Origin: Candidatus Borrarchaeum weybense
GTDB lineage: Archaea > Asgardarchaeota > Sifarchaeia > Borrarchaeales > Borrarchaeaceae
NCBI GenBank assembly: GCA_019057385.1
Contig: JAHQJS010000004.1
Location: 544,001 to 608,000 of the forward strand
Direction of reading: 5' to 3'
Length of the DNA stretch: 64,000 nucleotides
Positions within the stretch are counted from its first letter, which is position 1. The number at the start of each line of letters is the position of its first letter. This document shows, one piece after another, positions 688-3,743 of this stretch. The translations under genes were made by a program, and so were the position numbers. Below the pieces are notes generated by a model that searched no databases, was not told the DNA's origin, and worked only from the letters and a program-made list of their open reading frames with translations.

Positions 688-1881
688 TTGACACAATTTC
701 TTTTTGGGTGTTCAGGCTGGAGTTATGATGAATGGACGGGGTCCTTTTATTTAGATAAAGGCAAAAGTAAATTGTCCGCTTATTCCAGCATTTTTAGTAC
801 AGTGGAAATTAATTCCACGTTTTATGCATATCCCAAAAAGGAGATCGTTATAGGATGGTTACGTTACTCCCCTGAAAACTTCATATTTTGTGCAAAACTT
901 CCAGGACAAATAACTCACGACAAGGAACTTCTGGTTAGCAAAGGAGTTGAGGAAGATCTTAACCAATTTCTACAACTTATGCAACCACTTGCTGACGGAG
1001 GTAAACTGGGCTGTCTCCTGGTTCAATTGCCACCAAGGCTGAAATTTAATTCCAATAAAGTTGAAGCGTTTTATGCGATCCTTCCGAGCGAGCAATTTCA
1101 TTTTGCCATTGAATTCAGAAACAAAACCTGGCTTAGTGACAAATCCTTTGAACTGCTCAAAAAATACAACCTTGCTTATACTATAATCGATGAGCCGCAC
1201 CTACCTCCCGACGTTGAAATCACCACAAACTTCGCCTATTTTCGCTGGCATGGAAGAGGAAAGAAACCTTGGTATAATTATCATTACAGCGAAGATGAAC
1301 TTAAAGAATGGGTACCTAGGATTCAGGAAGCACAGGAAAGCGCAAATACAGTATATGGCTATTTTAACAACCACTATCATGGTTATGCACCTGAAAACTG
1401 CTTGGATATCTTAGACATGCTGGGTATTGCAACTTCTGTACAGCAGAAAACTAGAGGACGAATAAAACAATTCCGAAAAACACCCCCTAAACCACAACCA
1501 AAGGCGAAAACTCTGTTTGACTTCATCGAGGATGCACCAAAAGAGATTGTTAAGAAAAAGAGGAAGGAAACTACCGAATCCTTGTTAAGGTTATTTGCTG
1601 ATGAAGGGCGTATTCTCAATGGAAGGGTAATGAAAAATGATGAACTAAAAGATTTGAAGATAGAAAAACAACGAATCTCAACTAATATTAGAGATTATAC
1701 AATATTGATCGATGAAGAAAAACAACGAATCTTCCACAATTGTGGTGATTGGAAACGTCGAAAACAAAGCAAGAAGTTCTGCAAGCATCTTGTAAGATTA
1801 TTTCTTTCTTTATCTAAATTAAGATCAAAGTTATTGCTGAAAAACATTTCAGAGAATCTCGAAGATTGGACATTCGAGTAA
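688..1881 (+). CDS. DUF72 family protein with C-terminal SWIM-type zinc finger
   Basis: GCSGWSY, VEINSTFY, LVQLPP, EFR, RWHG and YFNNH motifs; C-terminal HNC...CKH. GGAGG precedes the TTG start. Confidence 0.9.
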   Translation: MTQFLFGCSGWSYDEWTGSFYLDKGKSKLSAYSSIFSTVEINSTFYAYPKKEIVIGWLRYSPENFIFCAKLPGQITHDKELLVSKGVEEDLNQFLQLMQPLADGGKLGCLLVQLPPRLKFNSNKVEAFYAILPSEQFHFAIEFRNKTWLSDKSFELLKKYNLAYTIIDEPHLPPDVEITTNFAYFRWHGRGKKPWYNYHYSEDELKEWVPRIQEAQESANTVYGYFNNHYHGYAPENCLDILDMLGIATSVQQKTRGRIKQFRKTPPKPQPKAKTLFDFIEDAPKEIVKKKRKETTESLLRLFADEGRILNGRVMKNDELKDLKIEKQRISTNIRDYTILIDEEKQRIFHNCGDWKRRKQSKKFCKHLVRLFLSLSKLRSKLLLKNISENLEDWTFE

Positions 1882-1984
1882 TTGAATAAGTCGCCTAAAG
1901 ATTAATGTTTTAGTTCTCGCTATGAGTTTATCCAAGATTTCTTGTTTTCGGGCAATTTAAAAAAAACAAATTAAGATGGAGTAA

Positions 1985-2350
1985 GTGACATCCTCCCCAG
2001 CCTTTCGGATGGGGCTTCCAGCTTTCCATTGTAGTTCTCGCTCCCTCACGGGAGGCGACGCTTCGCCACTTTTCCTACAGTTATGGGCTTACGGAAGCCG
2101 TACCAGGTTGCACACGCTGCTCACCCTTATCCTGCCCCTTGTTTATCTGCCTGCAGGATGCTATTGATCTGTTACCTGCCTGCTTTGCAGGTTAGCACAC
2201 TGCACACCAAAAGGGGACTCTCTTGCCACGCTGGATAAGATCTCATGCACGGGCATCCTCACGTTTAGCCCTGTCACCTGCTGACTGGTCGCTTACAGGA
2301 GGATATACCTCCACCCAGTCGAGCATTACGGGTACACTTGCGGTACCATC
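1985..2350 (-). ncRNA. Large structured RNA (omegaRNA-like) inside the IS605-type ends
   Basis: Many helices: GGTAC/GTACC, GACTGG/CCAGTC, GGAGG/CCTCC, CTTATCC/GGATAAG, CCCCTT/AAGGGG, CCTGC/GCAGG, GGCTT/AAGCC, GGCGA/TCGCC, CTCCC-GTGA-GGGAG, TGTAG/CTACA and CC-GAAA-GG. An internal TATA-like TTTTTATA lies ~25 nt upstream. Confidence 0.6.
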
Positions 2351-2428
2351 TATAGGTTTCCAAAAAACTATAAAAAGACATCGGCTTTCATCCCCCAGCT
2401 GTCGAAAGGAGACTTTCCGCCGATAAAG
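1985..2428 (-). mobile_element. Non-autonomous IS200/IS605-type element (444 bp, no transposase or TnpB ORF)
   Basis: On the minus strand it reads TTTAA|CTTTATCGGCGGAAAGTCTCCTTTCGACAGCTGGGGGATGAAAGCCGA (left-end hairpin) ... GAAGCCCCATCCGAAAGGCTGGGGAGGATGTCAC| (right-end hairpin ending TCAC). GC is clearly higher than in the flanks. Confidence 0.75.
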
Positions 2429-2471
2429 TTAAATTCTTCTTCTCAATGAGTGTATCCACAATTTCTTGCTG

Positions 2472-3743
2472 TTAGGATGGAGTAATTAAAGGAAGCGTTT
2501 CTCCTCCAATAGGGAGCGTCCATACGCTTGCATCATTACCCATTCTTGAAAAAGCAAGATCTAGTGCGTCTTCCACGCTATCTGATGGGGTCATATTAAA
2601 AGGATCTTCTACTAATTCAGAGTCTAACTCTGAAACTAGAATTATATCTGCCTTCATCATCGTTTTCCGCATATAGTATGCTTTGTGCCCACCGAGTTTA
2701 AAATTAGTTTGCACTTGTTTACTTAGTTCCTCTAGAGTTTTATATTTATACATCCATTCTTCAAAGACTTTATGTCCTATACCATCTTTGCACGCTGCAA
2801 TTACCACTAATTGACCACCAGGTTTAACTATCGTCTGAGCCTGTTCAATCGCTTTTTGAGCTTGATAGAGGTTGATATCCTTTGGAAAGCCGCCTGAACT
2901 CACTAAGACGATATCGGCAGGTTTGTCTACGTAGATTTTGAACAATTCGTCTACTTTTTTTACACATTTATTGAAGGCGCTGACTATCCCACCAGTGGCA
3001 ACCTCGGCAACCTCCTTATTTGAATCGAGAACAACACTTACGCAAAAATCAACTTTAGCCTTTTCAGCAGCCTGTGTCATATCGACATGAATAACATTCC
3101 CGTCTAGGTTTCCTGTAACTGCATCTGGATGAATTAAATTTGAATGGTTTTTCTGAATGCTTTTTAAGCTTGAAATTCCAGGCAAAATGCTTTTTCGACC
3201 TCCTGTGTACCCTGCATAATAATGAAATGCAACATCTCCAATAGTAATTCGTTTATCTGCTTCAACAAACTTTCTATTTAGCTCCACAGGTGTCTGTAAA
3301 TGCGTCATTCCTAAATTGACTAAATCATCAGCTTGACAATTATGATTCTCTACTACAAAACGGCTAACTATGTCTTTACCCAATAACTCATCCATTTCCT
3401 TTCTAGTCACAGGACGATGACTACCAACTGCAATTAGTATCTCAATGTTTTCCTCTTTAATACCCAAATTATCAAGTCTATTTAGCAAAACAGGTAGGAT
3501 TTCTTTGCTTGGAGTGATTCTCGTGTTATCGTTGACTACTATACTTATTTTATCATTCCTATCGAAAAGCTTATCAAAACTTGATTTATCTACGGGATTA
3601 TTGATGGCGTTTTCATAACTAAGAATTGGTGTTGGATTTTCAATATTCGAATTTTTTTTACTCTCAATAACGCCCAAAGAGTTTTTGTCGCTTATATCTG
3701 TATAAATGGCTTCTTCTCCGTATTTTAGTTCTACTTCTACCAA
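2472..3743 (-). CDS. larA: LarA-family nickel-pincer lactate racemase/epimerase
   Basis: VNDNTR, AVGSHR, HYYAGYTGGRKSILPG, GGFPKDINLYQAQK motifs. Confidence 0.9.
   Translation of the reverse strand: MVEVELKYGEEAIYTDISDKNSLGVIESKKNSNIENPTPILSYENAINNPVDKSSFDKLFDRNDKISIVVNDNTRITPSKEILPVLLNRLDNLGIKEENIEILIAVGSHRPVTRKEMDELLGKDIVSRFVVENHNCQADDLVNLGMTHLQTPVELNRKFVEADKRITIGDVAFHYYAGYTGGRKSILPGISSLKSIQKNHSNLIHPDAVTGNLDGNVIHVDMTQAAEKAKVDFCVSVVLDSNKEVAEVATGGIVSAFNKCVKKVDELFKIYVDKPADIVLVSSGGFPKDINLYQAQKAIEQAQTIVKPGGQLVVIAACKDGIGHKVFEEWMYKYKTLEELSKQVQTNFKLGGHKAYYMRKTMMKADIILVSELDSELVEDPFNMTPSDSVEDALDLAFSRMGNDASVWTLPIGGETLPLITPS

Follow-up and report, generated by a model that had tools for sequence, protein, structure and literature searches.

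A gene-less IS200/IS605-type element, a diverged duplication and a guide-like match at the end of larA in Candidatus Borrarchaeum weybense

The end of larA and its inserted neighbour

Downstream of larA, the gene for a nickel-dependent lactate racemase, the genome of the Asgard archaeon Candidatus Borrarchaeum weybense carries a gene-less insertion sequence (IS) element of the IS200/IS605 type, and the outer flank of this element almost repeats the last codons of the gene. The locus lies in a stretch of 64,000 nt (GCA_019057385.1, contig JAHQJS010000004.1, positions 544,001 to 608,000), hereafter the window, of the 4.18-Mb genome, which is called G000 where it is set beside its relatives; all window coordinates are on the minus strand unless marked otherwise. 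larA (2472..3743) encodes 423 amino acids with the C-terminus ...GGETLPLITPS, its product matches Pfam Lar_N (9.7e-63) and LarA_C (2.3e-22), and the source names of its homologues are from Promethearchaeota, an Asgard phylum. The final codons of the gene read CCT TTA ATT ACT CCA TCC TAA. Within the codons CCT TTA ATT lies the first of two TTTAA motifs (2486..2490), the transposon-adjacent motif (TAM) and insertion motif that empty-site alleles identify as the original insertion point, and the 14-mer that follows it, TTACTCCATCCTAA (2472..2485), makes up the present final four codons and stop of larA. Next come a 38-nt diverged copy of the larA-downstream spacer (2434..2471) and the second TTTAA (2429..2433), which stands immediately 5' of the left end of the element and aligns with CTAAAA of the original spacer in the allele alignment.

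The body of the element is G+C-rich and 444 nt long (1985..2428), or 449 nt including the second TTTAA (2433-1985), and comprises a left-end hairpin, the box TTTTTATAG, a predicted structured RNA and a right-end hairpin; its terminal bases at 1992-1985 read ...GATGTCAC and finish with TCAC. Directly beyond the right end stands TTACTCCATCTTAA (1971..1984), the first 14 nt of the would-be guide and at the same time the former final codons and stop of larA, which adjoin the gene in the empty-site alleles (G004/L053, L054 and the contig of run X6). It is followed by the original T-run after the larA stop, TTTGTTTTTTTT (1959..1970), a probable archaeal terminator of larA that now lies 15-26 nt beyond the right end of the element, and by the segment of the original spacer (1914..1944) from which, as sequence comparison indicates, the diverged copy at 2471-2434 derives.

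An earlier note, made from the letters of the window, had drawn attention to the resemblance between the two 14-mers, and its description is borne out. The flank after TCAC (1984-1971) is TTACTCCATCTTAA, the end of larA (2490-2472) is TTTAA followed by TTACTCCATCCTAA, the two agree at 13 of 14 positions, and the single mismatch, at guide position 11, is a synonymous change in the third base of a Ser codon (TCC vs TCT). The note's choice of TTTAA as the motif was also right: TTTAA precedes 20 of the 24 left ends in the genome, the remainder having TTAAA or CTTAA, and it marks the empty sites. The near-match is adjacent to TTTAA and lies in cis, 505 nt from the flank of the element, but none of guide positions 15-20 is identical (0/6), which leaves a total of 13/20.

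With 24,372 TTTAA sites genome-wide, a match with at most one mismatch in 14 next to any of them is expected by chance about 0.004 times per guide. Among the 31 TCAC right ends of the element family in the genome, the larA-adjacent one alone has such a TTTAA-adjacent match. The earlier note had proposed to check whether other copies target their own neighbours, and none of the 30 other right ends does; their best TTTAA-adjacent matches have 2-4 mismatches, in line with expectation for 24,372 TTTAA sites, and are all found at unrelated loci or contigs. The similarity at larA furthermore reaches beyond the 14-mer, as 2471-2434 matches flank positions 41-71 (1944-1914) at 26 of 32 positions with one gap, a score reached in 0 of 7000 random trials. 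A looser right-end pattern returned mainly non-element sites. The one perfect 20-nt self match that it gave (G000:C6, around 815063 and 816791) was rejected, as it reflects a 1.7-kb tandem duplication of coding DNA with no IS. This direct repeat (G000:C6:815063-816900) is perfectly identical over more than 160 nt where its ends were compared, is apparently coding and is unrelated to the IS family.

The intergenic spacer is bounded on its other side by a convergent gene of the DUF72 family (688..1881, plus strand; Pfam DUF72 7.5e-66), which is the same neighbour in all alleles. In the left part of the element, at window positions 2380-2360 (minus strand), T5 and T6 runs surround the TATA-like box and would lie in the path of larA read-through transcripts. 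The 3' end of the larA transcript may be formed inside the element, the gene's own probable T-run terminator now lying past it.

Copies, ends and predicted RNA of the element family

Six full copies of the element, with 88-92% identity, are present in the genome, and at least nine further copies occur in congeners, where the element is found in all four congeners searched. Each full copy begins with TTTAAC (seldom TTAAAC) and finishes with TCAC, and in all six the flanks on the two sides are unrelated. Both ends recur in IS copies that carry tnpB: the left ~73 nt of the element are 79-85% identical to the left ends of these copies, and the right-end hairpin GGAAGCCCCATCCG-loop-GGGG...TCAC is common to the two. 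The IS copies measure 1.3-1.8 kb and contain a single open reading frame of 411-427 amino acids with HTH_OrfB_IS605, OrfB_IS605 and Cas12f1-like TNB domains, whose product matches structures of ISDra2 TnpB. Exactly one Y1 transposase (PF01797, 131 bits) is encoded in the genome, inside the IS at G000:C7:194103-195885. No TnpB coding remnant was found in the element itself by tblastn with the resident TnpBs, which returned nothing below E 0.3.

An alignment of 15 copies has a mean identity of 92% and contains long invariant blocks. Among the invariant positions is the box TTTTTATAG, ~60 nt from the left end, which is also found 5' of tnpB in the IS copies and is a probable archaeal TATA box. 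The consensus fold of the element RNA derived from this alignment has 117 predicted pairs, 8 of them with double changes, and the conserved structured RNA region extends over ~300-360 nt; single-sequence folds of the element and of the IS 3' region give z-scores of only about -1.7. Rfam yielded no relevant match, either at gathering score for the whole window or at E up to 10 for positions 1850-2560, where the sole hit was a sub-threshold match to 6A within the A/T-rich spacer. The terminal TGTCAC (1990-1985) can pair with an upstream GTGACA (2276-2271) and adjoins the shared GGGCTA. At the equivalent places, the IS copies have GTGGAC and GTTCAC (e.g. L015 at ~187-330), with two pairs changed on both sides between the families, which hints at a closing helix of a guide-RNA scaffold common to the gene-less element and the IS. 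The element RNA resembles the IS scaffold solely in this helix and in the last ~35 nt, and its own scaffold is ~145 nt longer.

The absence of genes, the multiple copies, the shared ends and the structured RNA together argue for a gene-less miniature inverted-repeat transposable element (MITE), or palindrome-associated transposable element (PATE), of the IS200/IS605 type with an omega-RNA-like cargo. As such, it is a new family member of an already known class, in which IS200/IS605 elements without genes have retained a guide-RNA scaffold (PMC10055086). Its RNA is a putative guide RNA that may work together with a partner protein. An IStron-like reading, in which the element would be a group I or group II intron, was dropped, as no Rfam intron matched and neither boundary fits: the last base of the 5' flank is A where U would be expected, and that of the element is C in place of G. 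Contigs of metatranscriptome run X16 yielded only a diverged relative of the element, on a 260-nt contig, and a larA fragment, which are unusable as evidence for transcription of the larA-adjacent copy or for its 3' end.

Shorter forms of the element are also present. A deletion derivative of the MITE of ~255 nt (L043:3080-3335, in G004:C69) retains ~30 nt of the left end and the last ~225 nt, which suggests where the core portion of the RNA lies. Minimal elements of ~50 nt, consisting of TTTAAC, the left-end hairpin and ...TCAC, were found at G000:C7:708195, C6:90782, C4:842066, C4:1075416 and C4:1139615. Such a minimal element also stands right after the larA stop in L040, L041 and L056; the more distant congeners G001 and G003 have one in this place, and the larA spacer is therefore a repeated insertion hotspot. 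The sole TnpA-bearing IS (G000:C7:194103-195885, L052) has the 10-mer ATAGACTTGG directly after both its TTTAA and its TCAC. At the left side, ATAGACTTGG stands in place of the 9 nt with which the left end usually begins (CTTTATCGG), so that the flank copy at larA has a parallel here on a small scale.

Empty sites and the duplicated flank

Alleles without the element were found at the larA loci of several relatives, namely the congener G004 (~93% identity in this region), the ENA contig L053, the JGI contigs L054 and L055, and a Logan contig of run X6. In these empty-site alleles, larA...CCTTTAA|TTAC.CC.TC.TAA runs on into the T-run and the remainder of the spacer, with one copy of the 14-mer. 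As the empty sites are single-copy after TTTAA, the element must have entered 3' of the TTTAA in the last larA codons, and the flank after TCAC is the former end of larA. The X6 contig joins window position 1963 to position 2472 with four bases between them, and its empty allele carries TCC; the difference at position 11 is therefore an ordinary synonymous larA polymorphism. In IS605 systems, the omega-RNA guide is the sequence flanking the transposon and matches the scarless donor joint (PMC10055086; 10.1101/2023.11.30.569447), and the relation between guide and target at larA is this known donor-joint relation.

A plain insertion at this position would turn the LarA tail ...LPLITPS into ...LPLTLSAESLLSTAGG, as computed from the sequence, and homologues with as little as 75% identity still have the tail ...GGETLPL(I/L)T(P/A)S. 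In the window, the gene keeps its native tail because 52 nt (the 14-nt coding end plus 38 nt) and the second TTTAA separate the first TTTAA from the element. This 5' copy of the old flank lacks ~26 nt, the T-run and onward, that are found directly after the stop codon in the original, and it reaches the second TTTAA when the alleles of the relatives are aligned. It is the most diverged of the spacer alleles, with 77-82% identity to every other one, compared with 82-93% among the others. An exact 26-mer of the 5' copy had zero matches in the genome contigs and was found in one contig in the metagenome scan.

The same layout is found in the independent JGI metagenome contig L042, which spans all of it, and in contigs of run X5, so that it is neither an artefact nor private to the G000 assembly. 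Logan contigs of runs X1 and X5 cover both junctions. Compared with G000, L042 shows 100% identity in the 5' copy, 97.7% over the last 300 nt of larA and 96% in the element, whereas the first 100 nt of the 3' flank agree at only 84%. The flank beyond the right end in L042 reads TTACTCCTTCTTAG, with three mismatches in 14, including one at position 8, to a larA end that is identical to that in G000. The guide side thus drifts in the manner of a neutral spacer. Since transposition of IS200/IS605 elements makes no target duplication, the 52-nt copy requires a second event.

Origin and meaning of the match

We consider it likely that the match between guide and larA is a historical by-product of transposition and local duplication. 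A 449-nt non-autonomous IS200/IS605 element that kept a promoter and a long omega-RNA-like RNA would have inserted 3' of the TTTAA in the last larA codons. With no target duplication on insertion, the DNA past its right end would be the sequence that formerly followed this TTTAA, namely the last four larA codons, the stop and the terminator. In the surviving allele, a diverged 52-nt copy of the old flank with a second TTTAA, placed between larA and the element, restores the native C-terminus. As the second step, we favour unequal or inter-allelic recombination inside the element, with one participating allele carrying it at the first TTTAA and the other at the second. The left copy would thereby come from one lineage and the right copy from another, which would fit the high divergence. 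Alternatively, the element and its flank may have been duplicated in tandem, with subsequent TnpA excision of the first element, or the copy may stem from imprecise repair following TnpB cutting. Under the LarA-tail coding constraint on the first 14 nt, a 13/14 match, a synonymous sole difference and a collapse of similarity right after the stop are expected, and the match spans precisely the coding portion of the copy. The earlier note had concluded that the RNA is self-targeting in cis. What stands of this is the TTTAA-adjacent near-match 505 nt away; its cause is structural, an insertion followed by a duplication, and it extends to only 13 of 20 positions.

Several points weigh against this history. 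IS200/IS605 elements are not known to duplicate their targets, and an additional event must be assumed for the 52-nt flank copy. A search of the congeners G001-G004, the contigs L042 and L053-L057, and runs X1, X5 and X6 gave no intermediate allele, whether one that has the element directly at the larA TTTAA or one that has it at the second TTTAA with the remaining spacer behind it. Furthermore, the divergence of the 5' copy is ~20%, above that expected for a copy younger than the split from the empty-site lineages (~7-9%), and therefore an older or introgressed source is required. Finally, the deletion in the 5' copy begins exactly at guide position 15, near the region cut by TnpB, and would also fit a scar of cleavage and repair. 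Coding constraint explains this start of the deletion.

The resident TnpBs fall into two families in this genome. At the three RuvC positions, the six copies of family 1 (L015:234-1466, P0001, and five others in G000) have D / E,E,Q,D,D,D / D, so that 5/6 are acidic at all three, and the Q-bearing copy may be inactive. Their RuvC-II Glu spacing is one residue shorter than that of family 2, which has ~13 copies that are ~30% identical to family 1 (e.g. C4:969246-970334, C7:428241-429332 and C6:302595-303680). In family 2, 12 full-length proteins of 13 have the canonical D-E-D, and the thirteenth is a fragment of 162 amino acids. The resident TnpBs are all found in multi-copy transposon contexts.

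With most of these proteins apparently intact in their catalytic residues, the larA end might be an escape allele, a reading that we regard as unlikely. The duplication would have re-created TTTAA with the full flank, a TnpB loaded with the element RNA would have cut it, and the only variants to survive would have been those that lost complementarity, by a deletion of the bases from position 15 onward and by a C at position 11. The complementarity does halt at position 14, and the ~26 nt missing from the 5' copy start at position 15, close to the TnpB cleavage region, which lies at 15-21 nt in ISDra2. The boundary at 14 is the stop codon as well, however, and coding constraint alone predicts the pattern. 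Published data on other TnpBs would be consistent with a loss of cutting: Ymu1 TnpB hardly cleaves in the presence of mismatches at positions 4, 7 and 10, the last of which is in the middle of the guide, and editing by ISDge10 TnpB drops once the guide has 14 nt or fewer, while binding persists at 10 nt (PMC13507860). These data suggest that the larA-end site would not be cut. Yet the TCC variant is also present at the empty site of run X6, which had no need to escape, and the part of the 5' copy beyond the reach of any guide is equally diverged (6 substitutions in 35 nt), which escape leaves unexplained. There is also no evidence of a resident TnpB using the element RNA, of which only the last ~35 nt and the closing helix resemble the IS scaffold. 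The escape from cleavage by a mismatch that the earlier note had raised is thus compatible with the locus but not needed, given that coding constraint explains positions 1-14. Survivorship, meaning that cutting would remove any allele whose copy matched fully, may have played a part and is likewise unneeded to explain the data.

A related and likewise improbable idea is that the flank copies are scars of repair coupled to TnpB cutting, in which imprecise "homing" or post-excision repair leaves TTTAA and part of the old flank 5' of a reinstalled element. Two cases in the genome fit this pattern, the larA copy (52 nt) and the sole TnpA-bearing IS (10 nt, ATAGACTTGG).

Very improbable, in our estimate, is a functional partial targeting, in which a TnpB-RNA complex would bind the larA end through the 13/14 match without cutting it and form a roadblock or terminator, or link larA with the element in some other way, as a natural counterpart of TldR or of repression by truncated guides. 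A TnpB with a 10-nt guide does engage DNA without cutting (PMC13507860), and the larA strand available for pairing with the guide would be the template strand. The 5' copy is fully conserved between G000 and L042, but this is accounted for by the larA coding end together with a short, possibly recently exchanged tract, and the guide side is not conserved, with its mismatches in L042 including position 8. The near-target spans the stop codon of larA, away from the promoter, where blocking would give little regulatory leverage, in contrast to the promoter targets of TldRs. Neighbour targeting is shown by no other copy of the family (30 right ends), and the TnpBs are carried by transposons, neither a nuclease-dead lineage nor an association with larA being seen among them. 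The domesticated control of larA by a nuclease-dead partner that the earlier note had envisaged fails on the same grounds: the pair is unconserved, the site lies at the stop codon, and the TnpBs are mobile with a mostly acidic RuvC. Domesticated regulation by the element RNA is not supported. Binding without cutting at the larA end is possible, and it is unneeded to explain the data. An assembly artefact or chance similarity, to which the repetitive element and the short-read contigs that break within it could give rise, is almost certainly not the cause, considering the spanning contig L042, the junction contigs of runs X1 and X5, the chance expectation and the similarity over another 32 nt; the duplication is therefore no assembly artefact of the kind allowed for in the earlier note.

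Relation to known systems and significance

Standalone omega-RNAs are reportedly a subject of the work of Altae-Tran et al. from 2021, and Karvelis et al., also from 2021, are said to be connected with the targeting of donor joints by TnpB. Among described systems, the PATE-like non-autonomous IS200/IS605 elements of the Geobacillus ISGst family (Meers et al. 2023, PMC10055086) resemble the element most directly in that it is gene-less, shares its ends with TnpB-carrying copies and one TnpA-carrying copy, inserts 3' of a fixed pentanucleotide (TTTAA), and would have a structured RNA that ends at its right end, with the flank serving as guide. In contrast to them, its RNA is long and, outside the last ~35 nt and the closing helix, cannot be aligned to the 3' region of the resident tnpB, and the larA-adjacent element is bracketed by a diverged target duplication of 52/78 nt that the mechanism of the family does not produce. 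As in donor-joint targeting (PMC10055086), the TAM and flank are by construction the target of the guide, and the rebuilt larA end resembles the excision product of the element. However, a single molecule here holds both the element and the joint-like site, with 505 nt between them. This coexistence and the 13/20 match imply that the larA-end site is most likely uncut.

TldRs (Wiegand et al. 2023/2024, 10.1101/2023.11.30.569447) also have a TAM-flanked genomic site complementary to a nearby TnpB-type guide. They are characterized by a decayed RuvC, the loss of transposon ends, linkage to specific non-transposon genes and conserved guides to promoters (10.1101/2023.11.30.569447), and none of these four traits holds at the larA locus, where the element is mobile, multi-copy and intact at its ends. 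The TAM-proximal complementarity of ~10-14 nt corresponds to the regime in which ISDge10 TnpB with truncated guides keeps binding and loses cutting (PMC13507860), although that system is engineered and was studied in human cells, whereas the larA locus is known from sequence and has an internal mismatch at position 11.

The locus provides a natural record, in that a single insertion hotspot of Asgard archaea is represented by empty, occupied and remnant alleles. Less ordinary is the insertion within the last codons of a conserved gene together with a compensating, diverged duplication, which would not be expected from the textbook mechanism. If the flank copies were indeed scars of repair after TnpB cutting, TnpB activity in archaea would have left in them a trace of a kind seldom seen within a genome; IS200/IS605 elements could then occupy the ends of genes while rebuilding them, and would create TAM-adjacent partial targets that their own RNA could bind but not cut. 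For genome scans, the locus is a caution that the "guide" of an IS200/IS605 element is its pre-insertion site. A duplication of the insertion site can yield a nearby TAM-adjacent match, and such a match alone is therefore no sign of RNA-guided regulation.

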